This document shows, in pieces, positions 34,248 to 53,932 of a DNA stretch of 64,000 nt. The first letter of the stretch is position 1; each line of letters starts with the position of its first letter. Position numbers and translations under genes: made by a program. Source of the DNA: Acidobacteriota bacterium. Its GTDB lineage: Bacteria; Acidobacteriota; Vicinamibacteria; Vicinamibacterales; CAVVIG01. Location: assembly GCA_003222395.1 (NCBI GenBank), contig QHWB01000034.1, positions 147,645 through 211,644 of the forward strand. The letters run 5' to 3'. The notes under the pieces were generated by a model. It saw nothing but the letters and a program-made list of their open reading frames with translations, had not been told where the DNA came from and searched no databases.

Positions 34248-36287
34248 ATGAATAGGGAAGACCGCCGGCTCGGCATGGATCGGTCGATCACGCGGCGCGA
34301 TTTCCTCAACGGCGTCGGCCTGACGGTCGTCGGGTCGATCCTCGCGCCGGAGCTCGCCCGCGCGGCGCAGACGGAACTGCACCCCAGCGCGCAAAATCCG
34401 CGCGCTTTGGACCCCGCATTCGCGCCCGAGCGCGCCGCCGATTACTACCCGCCGACGCGCACCGGCATGCGCGGCAGCCATCCGGGATCGTTCGAAGTCG
34501 CGCATCAGCTGCGCGACGCGCGGCAGTGGAACCTTTCTGGCGCGATCGAGACCGATGAATCGTACGACCTGGTGATCGTCGGCGGAGGGCTGAGCGGTTT
34601 GTCGGCCGCGTACTACTTCATCCGCGATGCGGGCCGAAACGCGAAGGTGCTCGTCCTCGACAATCACGACGATTTCGGCGGCCATGCGAAGCGCAACGAG
34701 TTTCATTACAACGGCCGCATGCTCGCGCTGAACGGCGGCACGCTGAACATCGAGTCGTGGAATCGCTACAACGAGCACGCGCGCTCGCTCATCACCGAAA
34801 TCGGCATCGACATCGATCGGTTTCTCGCGTCGAACCAGAAGAACCGCACGCTGTATGCGTCGCTGGGGTTGACCGGACAGGCGCTGTTCTTCGACAAGGA
34901 GACGTGGGGCGCCGACAAGCTCGTCGTTCGACACAGCGCAGGAGGAGGCGGACGAGGCGGCGGCTACAAGGGCGACGATGTGTCGCAGATGCCGCTGTCG
35001 CCCCAGGCGCAGAAGGACCTGCTGCGCCTCTATGGCGGCGCACATGCCGACTACATGCCGGGGCTGACGTCGGCGGAAAAGAAAGTCCGGCTCGCGAAGA
35101 TGAGTTATCAGGACTTTCTCCTGAATCTGGTCAAAGTCGACAAGCAGGTCGTCTGGTTCTTCCACAATCAAGGCGCCGGCAATTTCTGCGTCGGCGTTGA
35201 TTGCTATCCGGCGCTGTTCGGGTGGCAGGACGGACTGCCGGGATTCTCGGGGATGGATCTCGAGGCGAGCCCGAAAGGACTTCTCGCCGATCTGCCCGGC
35301 GGCCATCACGGACGGCAGATCGGACCGGGCGGCGGACCGACGGTGCATTTTCCGGACGGCAACGCGACAATCGCGCGGCTCCTCGCCCGATGGCTGATTC
35401 CGGGCGCGGTGCCGGGCACCTCGATGGAAGACGTCGGCGCCGCGCGCGTCGACTACGCCGCGCTCGATCGATCGGGGCAGACGGTCCGCGTTCGGTTGAA
35501 CAGCACGGTGGTGCACGTCGCGCACGACGGCGACGCGGCCCGCGCGAAGGAAGTCGTCACCAGCTACGTGCGCGGCGGCAGGACATATCAGGTGCGGTCG
35601 CGCGCCGTGGTGATGGCGTGCTGGAACTCGTTCATTCCCTACCTCGTGCCCGATCTGCCGGCGGCGCAGAAAGACGCGCTCGCCTTCGGCATCAAGGGGC
35701 CGCTCGTCTACACCAGCGTCGCGGTGAAGAACTGGACGGCGTTCCAGAAGCTCGGCGTCGCCTCGATCAACGCGCCGACGATGTACCACACGGGCGTGTC
35801 GCTTTCGGAGGCAGTCAGCCTCGGCGATCTGCATCACCCGCAGACCCCGGAAGAACCCGTCGTCCTGCACATGACGCGCTACCCGATGTCGCCCGGTAAA
35901 CCGCGGAAAGAGCAGCACCGAATGGGACGCGCCGACCTGCTGAGCACGACCTTCGAGACCTTCGAGCGCAAGATTCGCGATCAGCTGGCGCGAAATCTCG
36001 GCGGCGGAGGGTTCGACCCCGCGCGCGACATCATCGCGATTGCCGTCAACCGCTGGCCGCATGGTTACGCGTACACGTACAACCCGCTGTACGACCCGCT
36101 CGAGTGGGTCTACACCTCATCGAACGATCGGCCGTGCGTCAAGGCGCGGCAGCCTTTCGGCCTCATCACGATCGCGAACTCGGATGCCGCGGCGAGCCCG
36201 CATACCGACGCGGCGATGCTCGAGGCGCACCGCGCGGTTCAGGAAGTGCTGCAGCGTCGGGCGATGCCGCTGCTCACATCACCGTGA
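34248..36287 (+). CDS. Tat-exported FAD/NAD(P)-binding amine oxidoreductase, paralogue of 23676..25643
   Basis: 'SITRRDFLNGV' twin-arginine motif; 'YDLVIVGGGLSGLSAAYYF'; 'LDNHDDFGGHAKRNEF'. Collinear with the first copy along its length. Confidence 0.65.
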   Translation: MNREDRRLGMDRSITRRDFLNGVGLTVVGSILAPELARAAQTELHPSAQNPRALDPAFAPERAADYYPPTRTGMRGSHPGSFEVAHQLRDARQWNLSGAIETDESYDLVIVGGGLSGLSAAYYFIRDAGRNAKVLVLDNHDDFGGHAKRNEFHYNGRMLALNGGTLNIESWNRYNEHARSLITEIGIDIDRFLASNQKNRTLYASLGLTGQALFFDKETWGADKLVVRHSAGGGGRGGGYKGDDVSQMPLSPQAQKDLLRLYGGAHADYMPGLTSAEKKVRLAKMSYQDFLLNLVKVDKQVVWFFHNQGAGNFCVGVDCYPALFGWQDGLPGFSGMDLEASPKGLLADLPGGHHGRQIGPGGGPTVHFPDGNATIARLLARWLIPGAVPGTSMEDVGAARVDYAALDRSGQTVRVRLNSTVVHVAHDGDAARAKEVVTSYVRGGRTYQVRSRAVVMACWNSFIPYLVPDLPAAQKDALAFGIKGPLVYTSVAVKNWTAFQKLGVASINAPTMYHTGVSLSEAVSLGDLHHPQTPEEPVVLHMTRYPMSPGKPRKEQHRMGRADLLSTTFETFERKIRDQLARNLGGGGFDPARDIIAIAVNRWPHGYAYTYNPLYDPLEWVYTSSNDRPCVKARQPFGLITIANSDAAASPHTDAAMLEAHRAVQEVLQRRAMPLLTSP

Positions 36288-37723
36288 GCGCCGCGGACGC
36301 GAACATTGACGCCGTCGTCATCGGCGGAGGTCCTGCCGGATCGGCAGCGGCGCGGCTGCTGACCACGTGGGGGCACGACGTCGTCGTCCTGACGACGACT
36401 CCCGATCGGTCGCGCGGACTTGCCGAATCGCTTCCTCCGAGCACGCAGAGGGTTCTCGCGGAGGTCGGTGTGCTCGATGCCGTGGACGGCGCCGGCTTCT
36501 ATCGCTCGACGGGCAACACGTCCTGCTGGGCGTCGCGCGAGCGGCGCGTCGAGACATTCGGCTCGCTCGGTTACCAGATCTTCAGACCCGATTTCGATCG
36601 CCTGCTCCTCGACCGCGCGGCGGCCGCGGGCGCCGACGTGCGGGAAGGAACGCGCGTCGGCGCGGTCCGCGTCGCGGACGACGGCGTTCGCGTGGACTAC
36701 ACGCTGAACGGTCGCCCCTCGAGTACCTCGGCTCAACTGGTCATCGATTGTTCGGGAAGAGCGGGCGTCGTCGCGCGGCGCATGCGCAAGTACGAACCGT
36801 CATATCGAACGTACGCGATCGTGGGCGTCTGGCGCAGCGATGACGGCTGGGAGCTGTCCGACGAAACGCACACGGTCGTCGAAACGTTCGAGCACGGCTG
36901 GGCATGGTCGGTGCCGGTGGATCGATCGACGCGCCACGTTGGCGCGATGGTGGATGGTACGTCGCCGCGCGCGGCCACGGGCCGCGAGCTCGAGGCCGCG
37001 TATCGCGGCGAGATCGCGAAGACCGTCGAGATGCGCCGGCTGCTCGCCGGCGCCGGACTGCTGCGCGTGTTCGCCTGCGACGCGTCGCTGTATTCGTCGC
37101 GCGCCTACGCCGGACCGCGGTTCCTGCTCGCGGGCGACGCCGCATCCTTCATCGATCCGCTCTCCTCGTTCGGCGTGAAGAAGGCGCTGGCGTCGGCGTG
37201 GATGGCCGCGGTAACGGCCCACACATGCCTGCTGCATCCGGATCGCCGCCCGGTGGCGGTTGATTTTTTTTCGAACTGGGAGCGCCAGGTTTACGCCGCC
37301 AGCCTGAGGCATTCGCGCGATTTTGCACGCCAGGCATCGGAGCGGCATCCCCACCCATTCTGGGCGGCGCGCGCGGGAGTTGACGTACCACCGCAGGACG
37401 ACATGGACGCTCCGGACGTGCGCGCGGCATTCGAACGCATCAAAGGGGCGTCGTCGATCGCCTTCCGGCTCGCCGACGACGTCCGCCTGGAGAAAGCGGC
37501 GGTGATTCGGGACCACGAGATCGTCGTCGAGGATGCATTTCCGGGTATCCGGTTCTTCGAGAATGTCGATCTCGTGAAGCTCGCCCACATCGCCTGCCAG
37601 CACACGCGCGTGCCCGACGTGTTCGACGCGTATTGCCGCGCGCAGTCGCCGGCGCCGCTACCGTCCGTCATCGCGGGTTTGTGTCTCCTCGTGACCAAAG
37701 GAATCCTTCAGACGCGAGCGTGA
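36284..37723 (+). CDS. qhpG: FAD-dependent monooxygenase (flavin halogenase/geranylgeranyl-reductase-like fold); candidate QhpG
   Basis: GTG 36284 overlaps the upstream stop (GTGA). 'DAVVIGGGPAGSAAA' is G-x-G-x-x-G. 'LLAGDAASFIDPLSSFGVKKAL' is the G-D-A-x-x-F-x-D-P motif of this fold. It is the only such gene next to the qhp structural genes. Confidence 0.6.
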   Translation: MSAADANIDAVVIGGGPAGSAAARLLTTWGHDVVVLTTTPDRSRGLAESLPPSTQRVLAEVGVLDAVDGAGFYRSTGNTSCWASRERRVETFGSLGYQIFRPDFDRLLLDRAAAAGADVREGTRVGAVRVADDGVRVDYTLNGRPSSTSAQLVIDCSGRAGVVARRMRKYEPSYRTYAIVGVWRSDDGWELSDETHTVVETFEHGWAWSVPVDRSTRHVGAMVDGTSPRAATGRELEAAYRGEIAKTVEMRRLLAGAGLLRVFACDASLYSSRAYAGPRFLLAGDAASFIDPLSSFGVKKALASAWMAAVTAHTCLLHPDRRPVAVDFFSNWERQVYAASLRHSRDFARQASERHPHPFWAARAGVDVPPQDDMDAPDVRAAFERIKGASSIAFRLADDVRLEKAAVIRDHEIVVEDAFPGIRFFENVDLVKLAHIACQHTRVPDVFDAYCRAQSPAPLPSVIAGLCLLVTKGILQTRA

Positions 37724-37851: not shown

Positions 37852-40611
37852 ATGAACCGGTTGTGTGCAGTCCTAGTCCTGCTGCTGGTCGTCGCGGTGG
37901 CCGCGCCGGCGGCCGCGCAGCGGACAACGGGCGAGATCTTCGGTAAAGTCGTCGACGAGAGCGGAAACATTCTGCCGGGCGTCACCGTCACGCTGCGTGG
38001 CGCGGGCGTCGCCGGAGCGCCAACCGCGGTCACCTCCGAGACCGGGACGTACCGGTTTCCCGTCCTGCCGCCAGGCACCTATAGCCTCGAGTACACGCTT
38101 CCCGGATTTGCGACACTGAGACGCGAAGCGATTCCAGTCGACGTCGGCGCGACCGTCGAGCTCGACGCGTCGATGAAGATCGGCGCCATCGAGGAGGCGG
38201 TGACGGTGACGGGCGAATCGCCCGTCGTCAACCTGTCGTCGTCGCAGGTGAGCACGGCCTACAACCACGAATGGGTGATGAACGCGCCCGTGCGGCGTTT
38301 CTCCTATTTCGATCTGATCAACTCCGCTCCCGGCGTGAGCGCGACCTCCAACGTCGGCCAGAGCACGGCGGCGCAGTCGTTGGGTAACAGCACCAACGAG
38401 AACTCCTATCAGATCGACGGCACCGACATCAGTTCGACGCCGTGGCCGAATACCGACGCGGTCGAGACGGTGGAAGTGCTGCAGCTGGGCGCATCGGCCG
38501 AGTACGGCAACGTGCAGGGCGCCGTCTTCAACATCGTCACGCGAATGGGCGGCAACGTCTTTCACGGCGACGCGAATTTCTACTTTCAGAATGACGCGCT
38601 CACCGGCCGGAACACCACGGACGCGGTCGACAAAGGGTTCCCGTATCACCGGGACAAGTGGCGAGACGCCACGATCCAGGCCACGGGTCCGTTCATACTC
38701 GACAAGTTCTGGTTCTTCGGCTCGTTGGAATACCAGCGGGACTGGGATTCACAACCTGGTACGGATCCGAAGTCGCCAGTGAAGAACGACTCGCGGCGTG
38801 TGTTCTGGAAGTTCAACTACAACATCACGCCGAACCATCGGCTGATGCATGGCTACCACAACGACTACTACTTCATTCCGGACATCACGTCCGAGTTCAC
38901 TGCGCCGAGCACCATTTCACTCAGCCATGGCGATAATCCGACGCCCAACCTTGTGTACACCGGTGTGCTGTCGGACAAAACGTTCATCGAGACGCGGTAC
39001 TCCGGTTTCTGGCTGCACAGCTCCAACGATCCGAACGAGTCCGGAGTCTCGCGCGTGCAGCCGCGATTGGAGGATCAGGACACCGGCTTCATCACGGGCG
39101 GCATCGGCCAATGGACCGAGAACCGGAGCTGGCGGTACGGCCTACAGACGAAGGTGTCGCATCTCACGGGGAACGTTCTCGGCGGTACGCACGAATGGAA
39201 GTCCGGCATTCAGTACGTCGGCCATGGCGCCGACACCGTCACCGGCAATAACGATCTCTATCTCACGTACAACGTCACGCACCGCCCGACCACGGGTACC
39301 ACGCAGTTGCCGTATCACGCGGGATCGATGGCTCGAGCGCTCGGCCTGTACGTCGACGACACGTACCGCGTGGGCAACGCCGTCATCAACCTCGGCGTAC
39401 GGTACGACTACAGCAAGGGACTGTTTCAGGCGCTTCCGTTCCTCGATGCGCAAGGGAATCCGACAGGGCTGATGTCGCCGGCCAACGATGATGTCTATCA
39501 CTGGAACACGGTCTCGCCGCGCGCCGGCATCAACTACAGAGTCAACAGCTCGGGAAGAACGCTGCTGAAGGCGCATTTCGGGCGGTATTACAAGCTGCTC
39601 GAAGCCTCGGAATTCCGGCCGGCGGTTCCGTCGGTCACGACGCTGAACACCTTCACGCTGGACTCTGCCGGCAACCGCACTAACATCGTGCCGACTGCCG
39701 CCGCGAACCTGCGCATCGATCCCAACTTCAAGTCGCCGTACAGCAACCAATTCATCGCGCAGCTCGAGCAGGAGTTGGTGGCCAATCTTGGTTTGCAGGT
39801 GAATTACGTTCACAAGTACGGACAGGACTACGGCGCCTGGCAGGACATCACCGGACAGTACGTGCAGGTGCCGTACGTTGACAATCTCGGAACCGGCGCG
39901 ACGGGCCAGACCGTCATGGTCTACAAGCTCACATCCAATGCAGCCGACCGGGTGTTCCTGCAAACGAATCCCGCCGGGATGTACATGCGGTACAACGGCG
40001 TCACGTTCATGGCGACCAAACGGATGTCGAACAACTGGCAGGGCGTCGTCTCGCTGGTGCTCTCGAAAGCGGAAGGGCGGCTCGCCTCCAGTGCAAGGTT
40101 CAGTCCGGTGACGTCGCAGAGCAGTCTGGCGACCTCTCCGAGCGGTTCAGCACAGTTCGGTCGCGAGACAGCTGGCCCCAACGACTTCGTCAACACGGAA
40201 GGGCGGCTCGTAGGCGATCGGCCCGTTGTGGCCAAAGCACAACTCGTGTACCGGTTCCCCTGGGGCATTCTCGCGTCCGGGAACTTACAGCACCAGACCG
40301 GCCGCTTCTACTCGCGCCAGGTGCGCGTCAGTGGACTCGGCTTCCCGGCCGCCGTTCAGATCAACATGGAGTCGAACACCGGCACGCGCCGCGTGGCCGC
40401 CGTCAATCTGTTCGATGCGCGCGTGCAGAAGGAATTCGCGCTGAACGGAAGCCCGATCAGGTTCGACGTCTTCATCGACGCGCTCAACCTGACCAACAGC
40501 GATCAGTACGAGTCGGTTGGATCGTCGCTCGGCACCTCGTCGGCGTTCGGCGTCCCGACGCGATACATCTCGCCGCGCCGAATGCAGCTCGGCGCGAAGA
40601 TTCGATGGTAG
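37852..40611 (+). CDS. TonB-dependent-receptor-like outer-membrane protein (carboxypeptidase-regulatory-like N-domain), qhp-linked copy 1
   Basis: Signal 'MNRLCAVLVLLLVVAVAAPAAAQ'; 'GVTVTLRGAGVAG…ETGTYRFPVLPPGTYSLEYTLPGF'; C-terminal 'RRMQLGAKIRW'. Confidence 0.8.
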   Translation: MNRLCAVLVLLLVVAVAAPAAAQRTTGEIFGKVVDESGNILPGVTVTLRGAGVAGAPTAVTSETGTYRFPVLPPGTYSLEYTLPGFATLRREAIPVDVGATVELDASMKIGAIEEAVTVTGESPVVNLSSSQVSTAYNHEWVMNAPVRRFSYFDLINSAPGVSATSNVGQSTAAQSLGNSTNENSYQIDGTDISSTPWPNTDAVETVEVLQLGASAEYGNVQGAVFNIVTRMGGNVFHGDANFYFQNDALTGRNTTDAVDKGFPYHRDKWRDATIQATGPFILDKFWFFGSLEYQRDWDSQPGTDPKSPVKNDSRRVFWKFNYNITPNHRLMHGYHNDYYFIPDITSEFTAPSTISLSHGDNPTPNLVYTGVLSDKTFIETRYSGFWLHSSNDPNESGVSRVQPRLEDQDTGFITGGIGQWTENRSWRYGLQTKVSHLTGNVLGGTHEWKSGIQYVGHGADTVTGNNDLYLTYNVTHRPTTGTTQLPYHAGSMARALGLYVDDTYRVGNAVINLGVRYDYSKGLFQALPFLDAQGNPTGLMSPANDDVYHWNTVSPRAGINYRVNSSGRTLLKAHFGRYYKLLEASEFRPAVPSVTTLNTFTLDSAGNRTNIVPTAAANLRIDPNFKSPYSNQFIAQLEQELVANLGLQVNYVHKYGQDYGAWQDITGQYVQVPYVDNLGTGATGQTVMVYKLTSNAADRVFLQTNPAGMYMRYNGVTFMATKRMSNNWQGVVSLVLSKAEGRLASSARFSPVTSQSSLATSPSGSAQFGRETAGPNDFVNTEGRLVGDRPVVAKAQLVYRFPWGILASGNLQHQTGRFYSRQVRVSGLGFPAAVQINMESNTGTRRVAAVNLFDARVQKEFALNGSPIRFDVFIDALNLTNSDQYESVGSSLGTSSAFGVPTRYISPRRMQLGAKIRW

Positions 40612-40696
40612 TGGACGGTCTTTAGACCGTCCCACACCGGCACGGTCTGAGACCGTGCCCACCGGAGGTCCCGAGGATACGAAGAGGGAGAATCTC

Positions 40697-41104
40697 ATGA
40701 CATATCTCAGAACCGCGGCCATCGCGCTCCTCGTCTTCGCCATCAGCGCGTCGGCGTTTGCCGGCGATTTGCAGGACAGCATCGCGAAAGCGGCGCAGCA
40801 ACAACAGCAGGAGGAACGGGCGCCGACGAGACACACGAACAAACCGCTGGTCTACACGGGTGCGGCACTGTTCGTCGGCGGCATGGCCGTCGGGCTGTTC
40901 TCGTTCATCAACAATAAGAACGGCTCCTTCTCCGAGTTCGGAGAAGCCAACGCGGTCAACAAGCCGCTCGGCGCCGCGGGTCTCGCCACGGCGTTCGTCG
41001 GCGGGACGATGATGTTCCTTGGCAGCCACAGAGCTAACACAAAAGCGCCGTCGGTCACGATTGGCGCGCGTCAGCTCAAGGTGGTCAAGCAATTGTCGTG
41101 GTGA
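40697..41104 (+). CDS. Small secreted/membrane protein of unknown function (135 aa; signal peptide, two Gly-rich hydrophobic segments, C-terminal …KQLSW), qhp-linked copy 1
   Basis: ATG 40697 with the SD 'GAGGGAG'. 'LLVFAISASAFA|GDLQDSIAKAA', Gly-zipper-like 'GAALFVGGMAVGLFSF' and 'GAAGLATAFVGGTMMFLG'. The stop is 4 nt before qhpA. A clear paralogue lies at 53933..54337. Confidence 0.7.
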   Translation: MTYLRTAAIALLVFAISASAFAGDLQDSIAKAAQQQQQEERAPTRHTNKPLVYTGAALFVGGMAVGLFSFINNKNGSFSEFGEANAVNKPLGAAGLATAFVGGTMMFLGSHRANTKAPSVTIGARQLKVVKQLSW

Positions 41105-41108: not shown

Positions 41109-42899
41109 ATGTTGAAACCAATTGGTTGTGTTCTGGGTGTGGTTCTCGCGGCGACGTTGGTGCCACGCGCCGTGGCCGATTCCTCTCAGGCACCGGCGAA
41201 TCGGGCCGCACAGACGGCGCAGCCGGGCGGCGAATCGAGAGGCGACGAAGGCATTCCGGTCACCAGCGATCTGGTCAAGCGGAAATGCGGCACCTGCCAT
41301 CTGCCCGACGAAAAAGGCCGGCTGTCGCGCATCTCGTACCGCCGAACGACTCCCGAGGGATGGGAGCAGACGATCAAGCGGATGATCACGCTCAACAACG
41401 TCCCTCTCGAGCCGGCCGAAGCGCGCGACATCGTGCGGTACCTCGCCGATCATCATGGGCTCGCGCCCGACGAGGCGAAGGCGGCGGCATTCGAGGTCGA
41501 GCGCCGGCTCATCGAATACTCATATCCCGGTGACAAAGACACCGAGCGGACGTGCAGCACGTGTCACTCGATGGGTCGTGTTGTCGCCCAGCGGCGCACC
41601 AAGGAAGAGTGGACGCTGCTGTTGGAAATGCACCGCGCGATTTATCCAGGCACGGATACCGTGTTCCGGCGCGGTCTCGGCCAGCGCCGCGGAGGCGCGC
41701 CGCAGTCGGGCGCGCCGCCGGAAGACACCAGACACCCGATGGACCGGGCGATCGAACATCTCTCGTCAACGTTCCCGCTCACGACTGCGGAATGGGCGGC
41801 GTGGTCGGCGACCATGCGGCCACCGCAGCTGCAGGGGCGATGGGCGCTCGCCGGTTATCAACCGGGCCGCGGTCCGGTATTCGGACAAGTGATCGTCAGC
41901 AATCAGGGCGATCCGAGCAGCGGTGATTTCACGACCGAAACCACTTTTACGTACGCGCGCGGGGGACAGACCGTGACGCGCCGCGGCCGCGGTCTCGTGT
42001 ACACGGGGTTTCAGTGGCGCGGCCGATCGAGCGGCGACGGAACGCCGTTCACGATCCCGGGCGTCAGCACCGACTGGCGGGAAGTGTTGTTCGTCGATCG
42101 CGAGTGGCGGAGCGCCGAAGGCCGTTGGTTCACGGGCGGATACAACGAACTGGGGCTGGATGTGCGGCTGCGACGCGTCGGCGCCGATCCGATCGTCCTC
42201 GGCGTCGCCGAGCCGATGATCAAGGCCGGCGTCTCGCAACAGGAGCTGCACCTGTACGGCGCGAACCTTCCGGCAAGTCCATCGCAAGCGGACGTGAACT
42301 TCGGCCCCGGCGTCACGGTCGATCGCATTGTCAGCTCGACGCCGACGCAGATGGTCGTGTCGGTGTCGGTCGCGCCGGGCGCGGCGGTCGGACGGCGCGC
42401 CGTCATTCTTGGCGGCGCCACCGGCGAGGCGGACGTGGCCGTCTACAACACGATCGACTACATCAAAGTGCGTCCGCAGGCCGGCATCGCGCGGCTGGGC
42501 GGCGCGGCGCAGTTCCCGAAGGGATTTCAACAGTTCGAAGCGATCGCGTACGCGAAAGGACCCGACGGAAAGGCCGACACGAAAGACGACGTCGAGCTCG
42601 GACTGATCGACGCGTACTGGACGCTCGAGGAGTACACGGCGACGTTCAACGACGACGACAAGGAGTTCGTCGGCGACATCAACGCCGAGACGGGACTGTT
42701 CACGCCGAACGTCGACGGTCCGAACCCGAAGCGGAGACACAACGCCAACAACTACGGCGACGTCTGGGTCGTGGCCTCGTATCCCCGCAGTCTCGCGATG
42801 AACCGCGGATCGAACGTGCGATCGGTCAAGGGGCGCGCGCACCTGCTGGTTACCGTTCCGGCGTACATCCTCTTCGAACAACCGGAGGTCGGCAGATGA
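41109..42899 (+). CDS. qhpA: Quinohemoprotein amine dehydrogenase alpha subunit (diheme cytochrome c plus beta-barrel domains), copy 1
   Basis: Signal peptide; two C-x-x-C-H sites ('KCGTCH', 'TCSTCH'); 'LSRISYRRTTPEGWEQTIKRM' and 'IVRYLADHHGLAP' match my recollection of the QHNDH alpha heme-binding domain. Confidence 0.85.
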   Translation: MLKPIGCVLGVVLAATLVPRAVADSSQAPANRAAQTAQPGGESRGDEGIPVTSDLVKRKCGTCHLPDEKGRLSRISYRRTTPEGWEQTIKRMITLNNVPLEPAEARDIVRYLADHHGLAPDEAKAAAFEVERRLIEYSYPGDKDTERTCSTCHSMGRVVAQRRTKEEWTLLLEMHRAIYPGTDTVFRRGLGQRRGGAPQSGAPPEDTRHPMDRAIEHLSSTFPLTTAEWAAWSATMRPPQLQGRWALAGYQPGRGPVFGQVIVSNQGDPSSGDFTTETTFTYARGGQTVTRRGRGLVYTGFQWRGRSSGDGTPFTIPGVSTDWREVLFVDREWRSAEGRWFTGGYNELGLDVRLRRVGADPIVLGVAEPMIKAGVSQQELHLYGANLPASPSQADVNFGPGVTVDRIVSSTPTQMVVSVSVAPGAAVGRRAVILGGATGEADVAVYNTIDYIKVRPQAGIARLGGAAQFPKGFQQFEAIAYAKGPDGKADTKDDVELGLIDAYWTLEEYTATFNDDDKEFVGDINAETGLFTPNVDGPNPKRRHNANNYGDVWVVASYPRSLAMNRGSNVRSVKGRAHLLVTVPAYILFEQPEVGR

Positions 42900-44374
42900 T
42901 CACGCTGGCGCCTCGCGAGTTCCACCTGTTCCAGGCGGCGGGCCGCGATTTCCTGTACCTCGTGCCGAGCGCGGCGATCTTCGCGCTCGACGACATCACG
43001 TCGGCCGTGCTCGCAGCCGTAACTGAAACGAAACGTACCGAGGCCGCCGTCGTCGACGCGCTCGCCGAACGGTTCGACGGCGCCACGGTTCACGAAGCCG
43101 TTGCCGACCTCCTGGCCGTCCGCGCGATTGGGTACGAGCACGAGCCCGAGTCGCGCACGCCGCGAGTGCTCCCGTTGATGCCCGCATCGTTGAGCACCGG
43201 GCGGAGCGGCGTCATCCCGCTCACGACGATGGTGATGAACGTCACGAACCAGTGCAACCTGGCGTGCACGTACTGCTATGAGTACGGCGAGGACAAGATC
43301 GTCGACACCGAGCACGGCAAGAAACCGAAGTTCATGTCCGAGCAGACGGCGCGCGAAAGCGTCGAGTTCCTGCTCAGGGAAAGCGGCACCGTTGCGCATC
43401 TGACGTTCTTCGGCGGCGAGACGCTGCTCAATTTTCCGGTGCTGCAATCGACCGTGGCTTACGGCCGGCGGCGCGCCGCGGAGCTCGGGAAATCGATCGA
43501 CTTCAGCCTCACGACCAACGCCACGCTGCTGAGACCGGAGATCATCGAGTTCCTCGTGGAGAACGACGTCGGCGTCACGATCTCGATCGATGGTCCGCGC
43601 GAGATGCAGGACAGGTTCCGCGTCTTCCACAACGGCGCCGGCAGCTACGACGTCGTCGCGCCGAAGATCAAGGAGCTGTTGAAACGGCATCGGAGCAAGC
43701 CGATCGCCGCGCGCGTCACGTTGACGTCGGGCACGCTCGACATCACCCGCATCTATCGCCATCTGACCGAGGAGATTGGCTTCGGCGAGGTCGGATTCGC
43801 GCCGGTCACGACGTCTCCCGGTCAGGGGTACGCGATCGGCGAGCGTGGGTTCGATACCATGCTCGCGCAGTTCCGCGCGCTCGCGCAGGAGTGGCTCGAG
43901 TGCAGTCTCGCGAACCGGCATCACGGCTTCTCGAACGTCACCGAATCGCTCGAAGAGATTCACAAGGGCGTCAGCAAGGCGTATCCGTGCGGCGCTGGTC
44001 TGGGTCTCCTGGGAGTGTCGACCGACGGCGACGTCGCGTTGTGTCATCGGTTCGCGGGATCGGACGCGCACAAGCTGGGCACGGTGCGCGACGGCGTGGA
44101 TCGCGATGCGCAGGTCGCCTTCCTCGAGCGGAATCACATCGCCGACAAAACCGACTGCAGCAGGTGCTGGGCGCGTCCGTTGTGCTCCGGCGGCTGCTAT
44201 CACGAAGCGCACGTGCGCTACGGCACGACGACGCATCCGAATCTTCACTACTGCGAGTGGATTCGCGGATGGACCGACACGTGCCTGCGGCTCTACGGTG
44301 AATTGTCCGAGCGAAACCCGGCGTTCCTGGCCCGGTTCGATCGAGAGGAAGCGAAGGCGGAGGCGGTGGTGTGA
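42896..44374 (+). CDS. qhpD: Radical SAM/SPASM peptide maturase for the gamma subunit (QhpD), copy 1
   Basis: ATGA overlap with qhpA. 'NVTNQCNLACTYCYEYG' is C-x3-C-x2-C. The C-terminal SPASM cysteine cluster is 'CGAGLGLLGVSTDGDVALCHRF…CSRCWARPLCSGGCYHEA'. Confidence 0.85.
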   Translation: MITLAPREFHLFQAAGRDFLYLVPSAAIFALDDITSAVLAAVTETKRTEAAVVDALAERFDGATVHEAVADLLAVRAIGYEHEPESRTPRVLPLMPASLSTGRSGVIPLTTMVMNVTNQCNLACTYCYEYGEDKIVDTEHGKKPKFMSEQTARESVEFLLRESGTVAHLTFFGGETLLNFPVLQSTVAYGRRRAAELGKSIDFSLTTNATLLRPEIIEFLVENDVGVTISIDGPREMQDRFRVFHNGAGSYDVVAPKIKELLKRHRSKPIAARVTLTSGTLDITRIYRHLTEEIGFGEVGFAPVTTSPGQGYAIGERGFDTMLAQFRALAQEWLECSLANRHHGFSNVTESLEEIHKGVSKAYPCGAGLGLLGVSTDGDVALCHRFAGSDAHKLGTVRDGVDRDAQVAFLERNHIADKTDCSRCWARPLCSGGCYHEAHVRYGTTTHPNLHYCEWIRGWTDTCLRLYGELSERNPAFLARFDREEAKAEAVV

Positions 44375-44375
44375 C

Positions 44376-44399
44376 GCAGCCCTGAAGGGCTGCGCTACC
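44376..44399 (+). repeat. Hairpin-family member in the 39-nt qhpD1-qhpC1 spacer
   Basis: 'GCAGCCCtgaaGGGCTGCgctacc', a 7-bp perfect stem. It starts 2 nt after the qhpD stop and sits just before the SD 'AAGAGGAG' of qhpC. Confidence 0.5.
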
Positions 44400-44413
44400 A
44401 AGAGGAGTAACAC

Positions 44414-44746
44414 ATGCGTCATCTCAAACCGATCAATCAAAAGGCTGGCCGCGTCGTCGACTTCGTGGCGAATCAGAAGCACGACGTCGTCGCGCTGCAG
44501 CAGCCGCCGTTCCGGCCGCATCTTCCGCTGGGATGCACCTCCCTCTTCTCGCCCGGCTGGGAAGCGGATCAGGCGGGCGGGACGGCCGGACTCTGCACGC
44601 CCGTCGAGCGCGACATCTTCGACTGTCACATCAGCTGCTTCTGGCCGGCGCAGGTACCCGACATGCTGAATCACTCGCCCGACTGGACGGGCAAGTGCGC
44701 CGCCGCGCAGAAGGACTGGCGGAAGATCGATCTCGTGTTCCCGTGA
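44414..44746 (+). CDS. qhpC: Quinohemoprotein amine dehydrogenase gamma subunit precursor (CTQ / thioether cross-linked peptide), copy 1
   Basis: 110 aa. The core 'GCTSLFSPGWEADQAGGTAGLCTPVERDIFDCHISCFWPAQVPD' has Cys, Glu, Cys, Asp, Cys, Cys, Trp, Asp at relative positions 0, +9, +20, +26, +30, +34, +36, +42. As I recall, this is the Cys7/Glu16/Cys27/Asp33/Cys37/Cys41/Trp43/Asp49 pattern of the characterised gamma subunits. Confidence 0.85.
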   Translation: MRHLKPINQKAGRVVDFVANQKHDVVALQQPPFRPHLPLGCTSLFSPGWEADQAGGTAGLCTPVERDIFDCHISCFWPAQVPDMLNHSPDWTGKCAAAQKDWRKIDLVFP

Positions 44747-44787
44747 GCGCACGCCAGCCGGACCGCTTGAATCGGGAGATCAATGAC

Positions 44788-45942
44788 ATGTTGAAGCGCG
44801 TTTTGTCGGGGGCAGTACTTCTCGCGGCTCTCTTCACGCTCGTTGCCGCAGCGCCCGCGAAGCTCACGGGCGGCAACGGCACCTTGTACATCGGCGGATG
44901 GCCGAACAGGATCTTCGTCATCGACGAGGCGACCGAAAAGGTGACAGGCACCATCGAAGTCACCACGGCCGGGCCGCCGAAGGGCGGTCCTCCGCGATCG
45001 ATGGTGCTGTCGAAGGATCGCAAGCGGTTCTATCTGACGAACTCGCTCGAGCAGGTGGAGATCCTCGACGCCGCCGCGCGCAGGAGCATCGATCACTTCT
45101 CGATGTCCGAAGGGCCGAACAAGCGGACGTACATCCGCGGAATGGTTCCCGATCCGCTCGATCGCTTCCTGATCATGGTTCTGAAGGTCGTCGAGAAGAA
45201 GATCGACCGGTACGAGGTCGGGGCTCCGAAGATGGTCGTCTACGATCTGAAGGAGCACAGGATCGCGCGCACCATTCCCTGGCCGAACAACGAGGAGCGC
45301 GAGAACGTCAACGTGATGTTCTCGCCCGACGGCAAGCTGCTGTACTTCTTCGCCGACGACGTGCTGATCTACGACACGACCGATTTCAAGCAGGTCGACA
45401 CCTGGGAGCTCTCGCGGCCGATCGAGGAGGGGTTCGGCCGCTTCGACTTCGGCCCGCGCGACACGACCTACGAAGAGCCTGGCTACTACAGCGGCATCTT
45501 CACGACCAGGGATCCGATCCAGAACCGCGACATCATGGGCGTCGCGCGCGTGAACCTGACAGCCAAGAGCTTCGACTTCTGGCCGATTGGGCCTGCTGTG
45601 CAGCTTCCCGTCGGAGCTCGGCCGGTGAGCTTTTCGCTCGCGCCGGATCGCAAGCGCGCCTACGGACTGCTGCAGGAGATCGGCCGCTACGAGTTCTGGA
45701 CGTTCGATCTCGACCGCCACAACGTGGCCAAGACGGAATTCGACGGCCGTCCGCGGATGGCATTGCGGACCAGCACCAACGGCAAAATCCTGTACATCTA
45801 TCAAGCCGGCAATACGATCGACTTCTACGACGCCGCGAACTACAAGTACCTTCGCACCCTGACGCTCGATGCCGACGAGACGACCGATCTCATCGTCGTC
45901 CCTGCTGAAACCGGCCGCACGACGTCTTCCTCGCAGCACTGA
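44788..45942 (+). CDS. qhpB: Quinohemoprotein amine dehydrogenase beta subunit (beta-propeller), copy 1
   Basis: ATG 44788 with the SD 'GGGAGA'; signal peptide 'MLKRVLSGAVLLAALFTLVAAAPA'. Repeated strand motifs typical of YVTN-like propellers. Position after qhpC matches the canonical qhpADCB order. Confidence 0.75.
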   Translation: MLKRVLSGAVLLAALFTLVAAAPAKLTGGNGTLYIGGWPNRIFVIDEATEKVTGTIEVTTAGPPKGGPPRSMVLSKDRKRFYLTNSLEQVEILDAAARRSIDHFSMSEGPNKRTYIRGMVPDPLDRFLIMVLKVVEKKIDRYEVGAPKMVVYDLKEHRIARTIPWPNNEERENVNVMFSPDGKLLYFFADDVLIYDTTDFKQVDTWELSRPIEEGFGRFDFGPRDTTYEEPGYYSGIFTTRDPIQNRDIMGVARVNLTAKSFDFWPIGPAVQLPVGARPVSFSLAPDRKRAYGLLQEIGRYEFWTFDLDRHNVAKTEFDGRPRMALRTSTNGKILYIYQAGNTIDFYDAANYKYLRTLTLDADETTDLIVVPAETGRTTSSSQH

Positions 45943-46219: not shown

Positions 46220-46309
46220 GCGCAAAGCTTTCAAGTTTCATCTAAGGTGACAGTGCTCTCTTCTGGGGTCCAATCTCACGGTCCTGAACGATTTCAAGGG
46301 AGGAGCAGC

Positions 46310-49222
46310 ATGCGGCGAGGCGCGATCGTCTTCGGACTCTTGGTGCTGGTCCTGGTGTCGGCAGCAGCCCCGGCACGCGCGCAGCGAACCACGGGAGAGA
46401 TTGTCGGCGTCGTGACCGACGAATCGAACCTCGTTCTGCCGGGCGTCACGGTGACGCTTCGAGGCCCCGGCGTCGCCGGCACGCCGACGGTCGTCACCAG
46501 CGAAACCGGCGCATACCGTTTTCCGGCGTTGCCACCCGGAGAGTACACGATCGAGTACACGCTTCAGGGCTTCGCGACGCTGAGGCGCGAGAACATCCCC
46601 GTCGGCGTAGGCGCGGTCATCGAGCTGAACGTTCCACTGAAGGTCAGCACGCTGAGCGAGACGGTGACCGTGACCGGCGAATCGCCGGTGGTGAACCTGG
46701 CGTCGACGACGGTGAGCACGAACTACAACAAGGAATGGGTCGCGGCGGCGCCGATCAGACACTTCTCGTTCTTCGATCTCGTCAACTCCGCGCCTGGCGT
46801 GAGCGCCACGTCGACGCTCGGCTCGAACTCTTCAGCGACCACGCTCGGGAGCACGACGAACGACAATGTGTACGCGATCGACGGCACCGATCTGTCCGCA
46901 CCGATCGGCGGCGGCGCCTGGCCGTGGCCGAACGCCGACGCGATTCAGGAAGTCGAGGTTCTGCAGTTGGGCGCTTCAGCCGAGTACGGCAACGTCATGG
47001 GCGCCGTCTTCAACGTCGTGACCCGCCAGGGCGGCAACCAGTTTCACGGCGACGCGACGTACTACGGGCAAACCCAAAAGCTGACGAGCCGCAACACGAC
47101 GGTTGCGCAGGAATGCCTCGGCGTATCGGACTGTCCGTCAAGTGGCCTGCCGTATCACCGCGATCAGTGGCGAGATACCACGGCCCAACTGACGGGTCCG
47201 TTCGTCCGAGACAAGTTCTGGTTCTTCGGATCGTTCGAGTATCAGAACGACTTCGATTCGCAGCCCGGTACCGATCCGTCCGCGCCGGCGAAGTCGACGT
47301 CGCGGCGCGTGTTCTACAAGTTCAACTACAACATCACGCCGAATCACCGGCTGATGCACGGCTATCACAACGACTACTGGGCCTTCCCGGGAGTTCCGAC
47401 AGCCTCCATCGCGCCGAGCGCCGTTGCGCTGTTCCACGGCGACAACCCCACGCCGAACCTGGTGTACACCGGCGTTTTGTCGAGCAAGACGTTCGTGGAA
47501 GCGCGTCTGGCCGGCTATTACGGAAAGGATTCCGGCGATCCGTTGCTTCCCGGTGAGCCGCGCGTCAAACCTCACATCATCAACCAGGATACGGGCCTGA
47601 TTAGCGGCGGCATCTCGTCCTGGGACGATGAGAAGGTATGGCGCACCGGCGTCAGCGGGAAGATCTCGCATCTTGCCGACAGGTTTTTGGGTGGCAGCCA
47701 CGATCTGAAGCTCGGCGTGCAGTACAGCACCGGCGGCCAGGACAGCGTCACCGGACCCAACGACTACCTCTACATCGTCGGCGGACGGCAGTCGTATGGC
47801 TACACACGTTTGCCGTGGCACGCGGGCGGACTCATTCGGATCCTCGGAACGTACGTCGACGACACCTACCGCCTCGGAAATACGTTCACGTTCAACCTGG
47901 GATTGCGGTACGACCATAGCCAGGCGCTCTATCCGTCGTTCCCGGTCCTCGATGCGTCAGGGAATGCCACCGGACAGGTCTCTCCCGGTAATGACGACGT
48001 GTATCACTGGAACGTGGTATCGCCGCGAATCGGTGCGACCTGGAAGGTGAACCAGGCAGGCAAGACCGTCGTCAAGGGCTACTACGGACGCTTGTATCGC
48101 GGAATCCTGCTCGCCGATTTCACCGACGCCAATCCGTCGGTCACCCCCAGGTTCATCTTCGACATCCTGCCTTCGGGTGCGCGCACGAACTTCGACGTCG
48201 TCAGCAGCAACACGAATCTGACGATCGATCGCGGTTTCAAGGATCCGTACTCGCACGAAGCGATCGTTCAGATAGAACAGGAGATGATGCCGAACCTCGG
48301 GCTGCAGGTGAACTACGTCTACAAACGCGGATACGACTACGGCGGCTGGCAGGACACCGGCGGACGTTATTCGCAGGTACCGTATGTGGACAGTGCGGGC
48401 ATCGACGCGAGTAACAGAACACTACAGCTGTTCAGCCTACTGACGCCATTCAGTCAGAGCACGTTTCAGATGACGAACGTGCCGGGGCTGTTCAGCAGAT
48501 ACAACGGAATGACGATCACAGGCACGAAGCGGATGTCGCACAATTGGCAGGGAACGCTTTCTCTCGTGGTGTCCAAATCCGAAGGACGCGAGCCCTCGAG
48601 CACGCGAAGCCCGGCGACTGCTCAATACGGCACGTCCGGAGGCTTCGGGCGGATCGGATGCGGCAGTCCATGCGCCGGCGGTCAGAACGACTTCATCAAC
48701 ACGGATGGCCTGCTGCTCGGCGATCGTCCGGTCGTGGCGAAGGCGCAGGTCATCTACAACTTCCCCTGGGGGATTCTGGTCTCGGGCAACCTGCAGCATC
48801 AGACGGGCCGCCCGTGGGCGCGCCAGATCCGCGTGGCCGGATTGGGATTTCCGAGCCGGCCCACGATCTATATGGAGCCGCTCGATGGCAGCCGGCGGCT
48901 GCCGGCGTTGGATCTGGTCGACGCGCGGGTGCAGAAGTCGATCCCGCTCGGGCGCCCTGGCGTGTTTCTCGATCTCTTCATCGATGCGCTCAATCTGACG
49001 AACAGCGACTCAACCGAGAACGTCCTGAGCCGGCGCGGCGATCAGCCCGATACGTTCGGCGTGTGGTCCGGGGCGGACACGTTGGTCCGCCCCTACCTGT
49101 CTATTTCGGCCAATCGATCACGGGCGGCACTGAATCCCGCATTCAATTCGAGAGTCTTCCGAAAGTACGGCGCCGCTTCTGATGCGCGGTGCTCGCGCTG
49201 GAGCGTGAGCCCGAGATTGTAG
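46310..49222 (+). CDS. TonB-dependent-receptor-like outer-membrane protein, qhp-linked copy 2 (aberrant C-terminus)
   Basis: Collinear with 37852..40611; most of the first ~150 mature residues are identical by eye. Where the paralogue ends '…AKIRW*', this gene reads '…SANRS' and runs on for 33 more codons into the convergent gene. Confidence 0.7.
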   Translation: MRRGAIVFGLLVLVLVSAAAPARAQRTTGEIVGVVTDESNLVLPGVTVTLRGPGVAGTPTVVTSETGAYRFPALPPGEYTIEYTLQGFATLRRENIPVGVGAVIELNVPLKVSTLSETVTVTGESPVVNLASTTVSTNYNKEWVAAAPIRHFSFFDLVNSAPGVSATSTLGSNSSATTLGSTTNDNVYAIDGTDLSAPIGGGAWPWPNADAIQEVEVLQLGASAEYGNVMGAVFNVVTRQGGNQFHGDATYYGQTQKLTSRNTTVAQECLGVSDCPSSGLPYHRDQWRDTTAQLTGPFVRDKFWFFGSFEYQNDFDSQPGTDPSAPAKSTSRRVFYKFNYNITPNHRLMHGYHNDYWAFPGVPTASIAPSAVALFHGDNPTPNLVYTGVLSSKTFVEARLAGYYGKDSGDPLLPGEPRVKPHIINQDTGLISGGISSWDDEKVWRTGVSGKISHLADRFLGGSHDLKLGVQYSTGGQDSVTGPNDYLYIVGGRQSYGYTRLPWHAGGLIRILGTYVDDTYRLGNTFTFNLGLRYDHSQALYPSFPVLDASGNATGQVSPGNDDVYHWNVVSPRIGATWKVNQAGKTVVKGYYGRLYRGILLADFTDANPSVTPRFIFDILPSGARTNFDVVSSNTNLTIDRGFKDPYSHEAIVQIEQEMMPNLGLQVNYVYKRGYDYGGWQDTGGRYSQVPYVDSAGIDASNRTLQLFSLLTPFSQSTFQMTNVPGLFSRYNGMTITGTKRMSHNWQGTLSLVVSKSEGREPSSTRSPATAQYGTSGGFGRIGCGSPCAGGQNDFINTDGLLLGDRPVVAKAQVIYNFPWGILVSGNLQHQTGRPWARQIRVAGLGFPSRPTIYMEPLDGSRRLPALDLVDARVQKSIPLGRPGVFLDLFIDALNLTNSDSTENVLSRRGDQPDTFGVWSGADTLVRPYLSISANRSRAALNPAFNSRVFRKYGAASDARCSRWSVSPRL

Positions 49223-51117: not shown

Positions 51118-51186
51118 GGAGACACCGAGAAAATCAGACGGCGCGATCGCAAAGCGCGCAGAGAGTGAACGCCGATCGGTTCGGCG

Positions 51187-51275
51187 GCCGGCCTGCGCAG
51201 CAGGCCGGCATGCGCGGCCGGATCGGACGGAAACGCGAGCCAGGGTGGATCCTGACGGCTCGCGTTTCCGTCCGA
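51187..51275 (-). terminator. Two strong GC-rich hairpins between the tandem sulfatase-fold/TPR genes; candidate terminator(s)
   Basis: GCCGGCCTGC-gca-GCAGGCCGGC (51187-51209, 10-bp stem), plus a perfect 19-bp stem at 51223-51241 / 51257-51275 with a 15-nt loop containing GGATCC. No U-tract. Confidence 0.4.
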
Positions 51276-51348
51276 CTCCGGTCGCGCGCGGCGCTCCGCG
51301 CCGCCGCCGAACCGAGGCGTCTCTGCACCTCTGTGTCTCCGTGGTTGG

Positions 51349-53922: not shown

Positions 53923-53932
53923 AGGAGACACC

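Follow-up and report, generated by a model that had tools for sequence, protein, structure and literature searches.

A family of exported hairpin proteins with glycine stripes in Acidobacteriota and its proposed role as accessory envelope subunit of Oar-subclass transporters

SusD-like and BtuG-type partners of outer-membrane transporters are lipoproteins, mostly with large soluble domains capping the barrel. In these systems, as for the lipoprotein partner of TolC (bioRxiv 10.1101/2025.03.19.644130), the partner is exported, and its gene adjoins that of the barrel and varies together with one particular clade of barrels. Glycine-zipper hairpins of SlyB encircle outer-membrane barrels as transmembrane rings (PMC12408116; preprint 10.64898/2025.12.22.696046). 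For Oar of Myxococcus xanthus, which consists of a CarboxypepD_reg extension and a barrel, the available part of the source describes no small downstream partner (PMC6434023).

Here we describe a small protein, X, whose gene, in one of two subfamilies, follows that of a transporter resembling Oar. Gene adjacency, co-variation with one barrel clade and export are shared with the lipoprotein partners above. In contrast to these, mature X has ~113 residues, is predicted to be non-lipidated and consists mainly of membrane-like helices, and homology to them was not found. Literature searches on QHNDH together with TonB-dependent transport, or on partners of acidobacterial Oar-like proteins, returned nothing on such a protein. 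Among the outer-membrane proteins that soil Acidobacteria encode, Oar-subclass transporters dominate, and their mechanism and cargo are almost unstudied. A dedicated small membrane subunit would, if real, be a new element of transporter architecture, unlike the lipoprotein lids of Bacteroidota.

The paralogous genes X1 and X2 and their surroundings

The window, i.e. the whole stretch of 64,000 nt that was analysed, holds the following features around the two copies:

36104-37723, + strand: qhpG-like flavin monooxygenase gene (NF049967 QhpG model, E 7.6e-70, score 235.9 bits, cut-off 240)
37852-40611, + strand: TBDR1, Oar-subclass TonB-dependent transporter-like gene (CarboxypepD_reg and OMP_b-brl_4), directly upstream of X1
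40611-40659, + strand: two tandem GC-rich stem-loops in the spacer between TBDR1 and X1 (RNA fold -40.5 kcal/mol, z -3.3)
40697-41104, + strand: X1 (copy 1, subfamily 1), 135 aa, stop codon included; ORF with homologues
41109-42899, + strand: qhpA1 (QHNDH alpha subunit), four Qn_am_d/Dehyd-heme_bind Pfam domains
42896-45942, + strand: qhpD1 (radical SAM), qhpC1 (gamma subunit, 44414-44746) and qhpB1 (~44797-45942, assigned by tblastn synteny only)
46307-49222, + strand: TBDR2, paralogue of TBDR1, with an aberrant 3' end in the window
49093-53640, - strand: two sulfatase-TPR genes by Pfam (49093-51117; 51349-~53640), the second divergent from X2
53933-54337, + strand: X2 (copy 2, subfamily 2), 134 aa, loop motif HTSGGEFVSGxVSKESKTG
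54341-56320, - strand: TPR_c, in convergent orientation to X2, encoding a multi-pass membrane protein whose C-terminal part carries TPRs
56405-58147, + strand: qhpA2, first gene of a second qhp operon
58144-59574: qhpD2
61015-62814: ABC exporter

The original prediction had singled out a pair of paralogues, and both ORFs are present where it placed them; a third copy was not found by tblastn of the window. X1 and X2 are 43% identical over their full length (pairwise alignment, E 1e-24). The motifs quoted for them recur in the translations, namely SAFA/GDLQDSIAKAA and SSFA/GDFQDSVAKAA at the N-terminus (the slash marks the predicted cut), GAALFVGGM and GAALFVAGM followed in both by a second Gly-rich segment, and the C-termini VVKQLSW and VAKQVSW (X1 and X2, respectively). 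A Shine-Dalgarno sequence, GAGGGAG, is located at 40684-40690, 6 nt upstream of X1. At the level of sequence X1 and X2 are confirmed as genuine genes and not chance ORFs, because GC3 in their frame (0.81) equals that of the adjoining genes, dN/dS against orthologues is low (0.18-0.28 for X1, 0.19-0.34 for X2) and homologues are numerous (488 matches for X1, 197 for X2). By the same ratios both genes are under purifying selection.

An exhaustive profile search yielded 212 cluster representatives at 50% identity, which we refer to as family X; a further homologue search, started from a divergent alignment, listed at least 10 proteins. All named matches belong to Acidobacteriota, mostly to Vicinamibacterales. 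Neither Pfam and NCBIfam scans of X1 and X2 nor a profile search of PDB sequences gave a family or structure match; BrkB, DUF7139, DUF3040 and GVDTG_CTERM appeared in the scans as sub-threshold noise and were rejected. The expectation of a conserved family without known assignment is thus borne out by ~210 clusters. Hitherto unannotated, the family is now delimited and fit for a Pfam or NCBIfam model.

TBDR1 and TBDR2 both carry a CarboxypepD_reg N-terminal extension in front of the barrel, as Oar does, and their orthologues show a weak Plug match. They are 58% identical to each other and only 26-30% identical to the two Oar-like genes of the window that lack an X. The stem-loops between TBDR1 and X1 have no T-tract and the terminator scan makes no call there; a REP element was rejected for this palindrome, as it is not repeated elsewhere in the window. 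X2 is monocistronic with an upstream spacer of its own. It lies 4.7 kb from a transporter gene, behind two genes on the opposite strand, and adjoins neither a TBDR nor qhpA.

Export signal, domain layout and predicted topology

X1 is divided as follows:

40697-40762, + strand: Sec signal peptide, residues 1-22, predicted cleavage AFA/GD
40763-40840, + strand: mature N-terminus, residues 23-48, a GDLxxSIxKAA helix followed by a Gln-rich polar linker
40841-40909, + strand: apolar helix H1, residues 49-71, stripe G55, G62, G/A66, G/A/S69
40910-40966, + strand: inter-helix loop, residues 72-90, subfamily-1 motif NNxNGxFSEFGEANAVNK
40967-41026, + strand: apolar helix H2, residues 91-110, stripe G92, G95, A99, G102/G103, G109
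41027-41101, + strand: basic C-terminal tail, residues 111-135, a beta-hairpin ending in KQLSW

The X1 signal comprises a basic n-region and a 15-residue h-region. Judged from sequence, X is Sec-exported without a lipid anchor, because the -3/-1 context [ASGT]xA/G occurs in the great majority of 334 family X sequences (A22 is 93% conserved) and a lipobox-like motif in merely 7 of the 334. Cys is absent from the N-terminal region of both X1 and X2. A cleavable signal had been proposed for both copies and is indeed predicted in both, cut at AxA/G.

Behind the cut G23, D24, L25, S28, A32 and A33 are conserved across family X, and this stretch is modelled as a helix. The two Gly-rich hydrophobic segments pointed out earlier correspond to conserved stripes in H1 and H2, where nearly invariant small residues follow a heptad-like spacing. 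In H1, position 62 is G wherever it is occupied (96% weighted, gaps 4%) and position 55 is G in 84%; in H2 conservation reaches 99% (G102), 96% (G95) and 91% (G92). The loop motif is kept within subfamily 1 and differs in subfamily 2. An EF-hand-like Ca2+ loop was considered for NNxNGxFxE and rejected, since position 1 is hydrophobic and a Glu is absent at position 12. Likewise, a PEP-CTERM-like sorting signal was considered for H2 with the basic cluster and rejected, as 20-25 conserved residues come after it.

The last strand of family X shows W/F at position 0, V/I/L at -2 and V/L/I at -6 and -8. The terminal aromatic on which the original prediction had remarked is W or F in 99 of 111 unfiltered representatives. 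With its polar odd positions this profile resembles in part the C-terminal beta-signal of outer-membrane proteins, and the three intact TBDR-like proteins of the window end in AKIRW, LRYQF and VKLQW. Unlike a beta-signal, the strand of X has Lys at -4 in 81%, which breaks the hydrophobic face, and the Gly at -5 is missing, being rare in the family; moreover it belongs to two short strands and not to a barrel. A role of this strand in targeting is conceivable.

AlphaFold2 was run twice. The first model (42-sequence alignment, signal peptide included) was set aside as too poor with a pLDDT of 56.6. The second, based on the mature chain and a 107-sequence alignment, is of moderate confidence (mean pLDDT 67.1) and shows three helices and one short beta-hairpin but no beta-barrel. 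H1 and H2 form an antiparallel hairpin with pLDDT of about 78-87. In a Foldseek search of the PDB every match had an E of 0.7 or more; these were generic hairpins, the majority from proteins of the inner membrane.

X could be a two-helix hairpin of the inner membrane (N-out/C-out, or three-pass if the signal remains uncut), partnering for instance the Ton machinery or periplasmic enzymes. Apolar helices by default undergo stop-transfer at SecYEG, X has two uncharged stretches of ~20 residues each, and the best Foldseek matches, although non-significant (E 0.7-3), are inner-membrane hairpins such as those of ExbB and TolQ. However, several properties of the family argue against this placement. 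Among 111 near-full-length representatives the loop contains 0 (n=73), 2 (n=37) or 4 (n=1) Cys residues and never an odd number. The Cys-bearing loops belong to distant members, and the distance between the Cys residues varies, which fits a hairpin stapled by a disulfide; this would require an oxidising compartment. The parity implies, as far as sequence can tell, an extracytoplasmic loop. The net charge, -0.9 in the loop and +3.7 in the C tail, is the reverse of what the positive-inside rule demands of an N-out/C-out hairpin in the inner membrane, so that strictly even Cys counts and positive charge outside the loop together speak against a cytoplasmic location of the latter. Neither the positive-inside bias nor the reduced cytoplasmic loop of inner-membrane hairpins is found in family X, whose loops contain many Ser, Thr, Asn, Gly and Asp residues. 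Finally the predicted insertion energy is marginal: as a crude, position-independent sum on the Hessa scale, H1 of X1 gives +1.95 kcal/mol and the second helix +2.4 (family means +3.1 and +2.6), values intermediate between those of SlyB (+4.4 and +9.0) and those of true transmembrane helices. We thus consider an inner-membrane hairpin unlikely and infer that X sits in the outer membrane. To our knowledge, no established route brings a non-lipidated alpha-helical protein there. If a hairpin with no lipid anchor does span the outer membrane, it would add to the very few alpha-helical proteins listed for that membrane, and the targeting of such proteins becomes a question.

Gene order in related genomes

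X1 and TBDR1 lie between the qhpG-like gene and qhpA. The neighbours match QhpA, QhpC, radical-SAM and QhpG models, whereas X itself matches none of the Qhp models (QhpA-G, QhpR) in NCBIfam and Pfam. The X1 stop codon (41102-41104) ends 4 nt before the qhpA ATG at 41109, as the idea of co-translation with the dehydrogenase had assumed; but the spacing is not conserved, measuring 84 nt in locus L001 and ranging from 4 to >180 nt across loci.

Loci from other genomes were collected through X itself and are hence a biased sample for the co-occurrence of transporter and X. Conservation next to TBDR-like and qhp genes, on which the original prediction depended, is seen among them. In subfamily 1 the 3' end of a TBDR1/2-clade gene is found directly upstream on the same strand wherever enough upstream sequence is readable; in L049 no marker match was obtained upstream of X. 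Gaps between transporter and X genes amount to 3-25 nt in most loci and, between called genes, to 3-5 nt in L017 and L018. In these two loci the qhp order is qhpDCAB, and X stays with the transporter gene and not with qhpA. One X of L018 (L018:1892-2311) has an amidohydrolase in place of qhp while its adjacency to the transporter is kept.

These gene orders bear on a role specific to QHNDH, as membrane tether, assembly factor or electron-transfer scaffold. In its favour are the short X1-qhpA distance, the position of X and TBDR1 between the qhpG-like gene and qhpA, and the fact that in most subfamily-1 loci the next gene downstream is qhpA. An obligate co-occurrence of X and qhp is however not observed: no qhp is seen within 10 kb on either side of X in L004, over ~7 kb downstream of X in L010, beside the L018 copy mentioned above or in the short downstream stretches of L035 and L055 (only ~0.5 kb readable), none is seen near X in distant clades either, and L001 has a second qhp operon without X. 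Nor does X contain a conserved set of Cys, His or Met ligands or any other cofactor-ligand motif. We know of no such gene in the characterised proteobacterial qhpADCBEFGR operons. The tether or scaffold function suggested at the outset is thus not supported, and a QHNDH-specific role appears very improbable. A role at the transporter is favoured instead, because X remains beside the transporter gene where qhp is reordered, replaced or not seen. From sequence, X is probably a new accessory envelope subunit.

Could X also be a cargo or effector, e.g. a membrane-active glycine-zipper peptide that leaves the cell through the Oar-like transporter in the way PopC is exported by Oar? The genes are adjacent, Oar-subclass transporters can secrete protein according to the available part of PMC6434023, and glycine-zipper toxins exist (accessible portion of PMC12955049). 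Across the order, though, X occurs as a single-copy orthologue on which purifying selection acts; it has a stable place within a catabolic operon and lacks an immunity-like gene nearby, and the basic C-terminal strand and the N-helix, both conserved, have the look of structural elements. A cargo or effector is in our view extremely improbable.

A putative partner of the transporter barrel

Among the closest known parallels of X are SlyB, YfgH and Pcp, glycine-zipper 2TM lipoproteins of the outer membrane (PDB 7OJF, 7OJG). Like X they are small and exported and form an antiparallel hairpin of two Gly/Ala-rich helices whose weak hydrophobicity is untypical of anchors in the inner membrane. The hairpins of SlyB cross the outer membrane and enclose beta-barrels; for X the same mechanism is a proposal only. 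The differences are considerable. SlyB-type proteins are lipoproteins with a lipobox Cys at +1, which X lacks. Their helices show repeated GxxxG, joined by a short Gly turn, in contrast to the heptad-like stripe and the long, conserved and sometimes disulfide-stapled loop of X, and their periplasmic part is a beta-sandwich domain where X has a 16-residue helix and a ~17-residue beta-hairpin. SlyB is linked to a stress regulon, X to one transporter clade. At E up to 10, hmmscan assigned X to none of the Gly-zipper models (PF05433 and related), and hhalign of family X against SlyB (sequence verified as 7ojf_A) gave a probability of 0.1. The earlier description of X as SlyB-like is therefore apt for the hairpin and fails for family membership.

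Of the three functions originally offered, a partner of the TBDR-like barrel fits the synteny best, given the adjacency without qhp or with reordered qhp. We propose, tentatively and rating it as a serious candidate that falls somewhat short of being probable, that X is a non-lipidated helical hairpin of the outer membrane that partners the barrel, SlyB-like in action and not homologous. After cleavage at AxA/G the mature chain would be headed by the short conserved helix. The two ~20-residue apolar helices would zip via their Gly/Ala stripes into an antiparallel hairpin embedded in the outer membrane, with the clade-specific loop that joins them facing outward. The basic beta-hairpin ending in W or F would close the chain and lie, together with the N-helix, at the periplasmic face. 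X would thereby serve one clade of Oar-subclass TonB-dependent transporters in this lineage as accessory subunit, packing against the barrel or ringing it as SlyB-type glycine-zipper hairpins do; a physical contact between the two is presumed here. The transporter has itself been recruited into the qhp operon of quinohemoprotein amine dehydrogenase (QHNDH), presumably so that the substrate or a different ligand can cross the outer membrane. This ties transporter, X and amine dehydrogenase of Vicinamibacterales together in a way that can be tested.

The remaining members of the family are arranged differently. Members of subfamily 2 always have SulfTPR_b on one side and TPR_c on the other (about 35 loci), in the same island as the transporter and not adjacent to it, and the sulfatase-TPR arrangement of the window recurs in all these loci. 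Distant clades, which are not associated with the transporter, belong to other modules, where X is accompanied by a secreted protein of ~270-300 aa and a lipoprotein of ~155-172 aa; their partner proteins Y and Z have no Pfam family match. It follows from these modules that the core function of family X needs no transporter. The distant clades, the monocistronic X2 and the similar hairpin architecture would also agree with a general envelope-stabilising glycine-zipper protein like SlyB/YfgH that forms lipid/OMP nanodomains under stress, the transporter link then reflecting co-expression only. Against such a stabiliser stand the tight and conserved transporter-X spacing, the confinement of X to one transporter clade, the missing SlyB homology and loop motifs strongly kept per subfamily, which suggest a specific contact; we regard it as distinctly unlikely. 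A wider version of the preferred barrel-partner reading, to which we give a low probability, would have X found a class of integral proteins of the outer membrane that are alpha-helical and not lipidated, in which a glycine-zipper hairpin bearing a disulfide-capable surface loop is delivered and docked via a beta-signal-like C-terminal hairpin, as dedicated subunit of Oar-type transporters and, in sister clades, of other envelope modules. The TPR_c gene, too, recurs in other genomes: it is convergent with X in all subfamily-2 loci and additionally in L010, L017 and L055 of subfamily 1.

The two window genes and their protein family

Two genes of the window encode a small exported, glycine-rich protein, here X (copies X1 and X2). 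Both reading frames exist at the coordinates of the original prediction, and the sequence details it quoted are all correct, including the C-termini AKIRW, LRYQF and VKLQW of three TBDR-like proteins. TBDR1 and TBDR2 denote TonB-dependent transporter-like genes of the Oar subclass, and qhp the genes for quinohemoprotein amine dehydrogenase (QHNDH).

Window features referred to in the text
34248-36287, FAD/NAD(P) oxidoreductase of 679 aa with a twin-arginine-like N-terminus, preceding the qhpG-like gene
36104-37723, QhpG-like flavin monooxygenase upstream of TBDR1 (NF049967, 235.9 bits against a cut-off of 240)
40611-40659, two tandem GC-rich stem-loops with the shared core ACGGTCT...AGACCGT in the 85-nt TBDR1-X1 spacer
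40697-41104, + strand, X1, ORF of 135 aa
49069-49222, aberrant 3' end of TBDR2 (ORF 46247/46307-49222), from orthologue comparison
53933-54337, + strand, X2, ORF of 134 aa

A ribosome-binding site (GAGGGAG) ends 6 nt 5' of the X1 start codon, and the X1 TGA is separated by 4 nt from the ATG of qhpA (41109), as had been predicted. The two copies align over their full length with 43% identity (E 1e-24); a third copy was not found in the window by tblastn. In-frame GC3 is 0.81 as in the neighbouring genes (window 66% GC) and dN/dS amounts to 0.18-0.34 (Nei-Gojobori, four orthologues per copy). X1 and X2 are real genes under purifying selection.

Neither copy reaches a Pfam or NCBIfam threshold; the sub-threshold matches are noise. 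Word-indexed searches returned 488 relatives for X1 and 197 for X2, all annotated 'hypothetical', the few named ones being from Vicinamibacterales or Acidobacteria MAGs. An exhaustive profile search covering 1.84 billion representatives gave 212 clusters at E up to 1e-3, of which 96 pass 1e-10 and 22 pass 1e-30; almost all measure 125-150 aa and have the layout of X. Each window copy represents a subfamily with its own conserved loop (FINNxNGxFSEFGEANAVNK in subfamily 1, FLHTSGGEFVSGxVSKESKTG in subfamily 2).

A scan of GTDB species genomes revealed nine X loci, eight of them labelled Acidobacteriota, Acidobacteria or Vicinamibacterales and one 'uncultured Bifidobacterium sp.' (L011, CAYLTD010000024.1). 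The latter shows the typical acidobacterial order qhpG-like, Oar-like transporter, X, qhpADB, and mislabelling or contamination of its bin is probable. A 1.1-kb JGI metagenome contig (L021, Ga0134067_10081746) carries an X1 100% identical to that of the window at the protein level, with the same flanks.

Gene neighbourhood in the window and in other loci

The window is arranged as qhpG-like, TBDR1, X1, qhpA, qhpD, qhpC, qhpB and TBDR2, followed by two sulfatase-TPR genes on the opposite strand, X2, a gene for a multi-pass membrane protein with C-terminal TPRs (TPR_c, opposite strand) and a second qhp operon. The qhpG-like gene upstream of TBDR1 thus places transporter and X inside the qhp gene set. 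The 679-aa oxidoreductase is also kept upstream of a TBDR2-type gene in two further loci (L005, L006). TBDR1 and TBDR2 consist of a CarboxypepD_reg N-terminal extension and a barrel, the hallmark of the Oar subclass of TonB-dependent transporters (PMC6434023). They share 58% identity with each other, against 26-30% of either with the window's two other, X-less Oar-like genes.

The stem-loops between TBDR1 and X1 fold with -40.5 kcal/mol (z -3.3), are not accompanied by a T-tract and have no second occurrence within the window. They could represent an attenuator or an mRNA-stability element setting the expression ratio of transporter, X and qhp. Homology of TBDR2 to its orthologues stops after ...TFGVWS; the final beta-strand (...RFVYPRRLQLGARIKF in L005) is absent in all frames, and about 50 unrelated codons follow, which reach about 130 nt into the 3' end of the convergent sulfatase-TPR gene. 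This could reflect an assembly error or a local deletion, or TBDR2 could be a pseudogene.

In total 88 loci, retrieved via X itself, were marked by tblastn with the window proteins. Wherever enough upstream sequence is readable, subfamily-1 X is immediately preceded on the same strand by the C-terminal end of a TBDR1/2-clade gene; in L049 no marker match was found upstream. The usual downstream gene is qhpA. Its place is taken by TPR_c on the opposite strand in L010, L017 and L055, by a further TBDR-like gene, likewise on the opposite strand, in L035, and by an amidohydrolase gene behind the first X of L018. The divergent loci L017 and L018 have their qhp genes in the order D-C-A-B, and X nevertheless begins 3-4 nt past the transporter stop. 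Fused gene calls, joining a transporter C-terminus to X (P0285, P0300) or X to out-of-frame qhpA sequence (P0244), independently show close packing of the three genes in further assemblies.

Subfamily-2 X is always divergent from a sulfatase-TPR gene and convergent with TPR_c (about 35 loci). The two sulfatase-TPR genes (-), X2 (+) and TPR_c (-), at 49093-56320 in the window, stay together as one unit, placed between TBDR2 and qhpA2, in about 35 loci, the loci with this block including L005, L006, L012-L015 and L054-L085. The convergence of TPR_c with subfamily-1 X in L010, L017 and L055 hints at a link between both proteins; the TPR_c membrane domain has no Pfam match.

In the Vicinamibacterales lineage of the window X has, on the most economical reading, become the constant companion of a single clade of Oar-type transporters, itself embedded in the qhp operon. 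By synteny, subfamily 1 alone can be classed as a putative transporter accessory protein, with a possible physical association. A QHNDH-specific factor would suit the place of X among the qhp genes. The second transporter-X pair of L018 lacks qhp, L004 has the subfamily-2 block with no qhp genes nearby, and X does not qualify as a Qhp protein; such a role is highly improbable.

Predicted anatomy and membrane placement

Weighted conservation (334 sequences), AF2 models and motif counts define five parts. The great majority of the 334 sequences carry a signal peptide of the pattern [ASGT]xA|G and only 7 a lipobox-like motif, hence cleavage by signal peptidase I is expected, leaving no lipid anchor. 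The mature chain opens with the conserved GDLxxSIxKAA, a short helix, and continues into a Gln/Ala-rich linker. The first apolar helix (H1) is framed by aromatic belts at its start (Y/L, W) and end (Y, F70) and bears small residues at G55, G62 (G in all sequences that have a residue here), G/A66 and G/A/S69. After a loop that varies across the family, H2 shows small residues in heptad-like spacing (G92, G95, A99, G102 (99%), G103, G109). A conserved Pro opens the basic tail, whose two strands make a hairpin. AF2 on mature X with 107 aligned homologues (mean pLDDT 67) packs H1 and H2 antiparallel (pLDDT about 78-87), and Foldseek against the PDB gave no match better than E 0.7.

The last strand is hydrophobic at positions 0 (W 290, F 44), -2, -6 and -8 and polar at odd positions, with Lys at -4 in 81%. 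The aromatic end and the alternation are common to X and the beta-signal of barrel proteins, whereas Lys at -4 and the missing Gly at -5 are unlike it. This partial likeness may serve as a lead, not as evidence for BAM dependence; X does not classify as a beta-barrel.

As the N-terminus is periplasmic after cleavage, an antiparallel hairpin in the inner membrane would place the loop in the cytoplasm. Among 111 near-full-length representatives the loop contains 0 (73), 2 (37) or 4 (1) Cys, never an odd number. Their variable spacing would fit a disulfide-stapled beta-hairpin; loops of Cys-free relatives are often either Ser/Thr/Asn-rich with alternation or very acidic. Net charge is -0.9 in the loop versus +3.7 in the tail, the reverse of positive-inside for a cytoplasmic loop. 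For X1, rough, position-independent Hessa sums over the best 19-residue windows come to +1.95 and +2.4 kcal/mol, and the rough family means are +3.1 and +2.6, compared with +4.4 and +9.0 for the SlyB helices. Cys parity, charge and hydrophobicity argue against a cytoplasmic loop, and an inner-membrane hairpin is unlikely. The three results together point to a hairpin escaping the Sec translocon, which would lie in the outer membrane with the loop outward, or buried in a periplasmic/outer-membrane complex.

The precedent is SlyB, whose glycine-zipper hairpins assemble into transmembrane rings that surround outer-membrane barrels, their turn residues touching LPS (PMC12408116), and YfgH is described as a further transmembrane glycine-zipper lipoprotein (bioRxiv 10.64898/2025.12.22.696046). 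The SlyB-like character originally proposed for X stands as a resemblance in working to SlyB, YfgH and Pcp, but X differs from these by having no lipobox, profile match or beta-sandwich. A general SlyB-like stabiliser without specific partner is quite improbable. Tentatively, X may be a non-lipidated glycine-zipper hairpin of the outer membrane that would flank or encircle the transporter barrel, its clade-specific loop facing outside and its N-helix and basic C-hairpin lying on the periplasmic side. We file it as a glycine-zipper envelope hairpin protein, new in being a non-lipidated family and in its genomic partner.

Distant clades outside the transporter context

In more distant clades the transporter context is lost. 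X is found there together with a secreted protein of ~270-300 aa, homologous across L016, L020 and L086, and a lipoprotein of ~155-172 aa, homologous across L019, L020 and L086.

Loci of the separate, conserved module of distant X with two other unannotated exported proteins
L020:3615-5420
L086:7040-8993
L016:164-1322
L019:10001-11441

The gene order varies (X-Y-Z, Y-X-Z) and none of the three proteins matches a Pfam family. All partners in the distant clades either carry a signal for export or belong to the envelope proteins. X is most economically read as a small membrane module of the envelope that associates with other exported proteins; that it is itself a cargo or effector is very improbable. 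A divergent X is flanked by the genes of a cupredoxin lipoprotein and a CBM9/DUF5916 protein (L088:1494-4676), a further setting with envelope proteins only, and one distant X is located upstream of genes for an ECF sigma factor, FecR and a CarboxypepD_reg protein.
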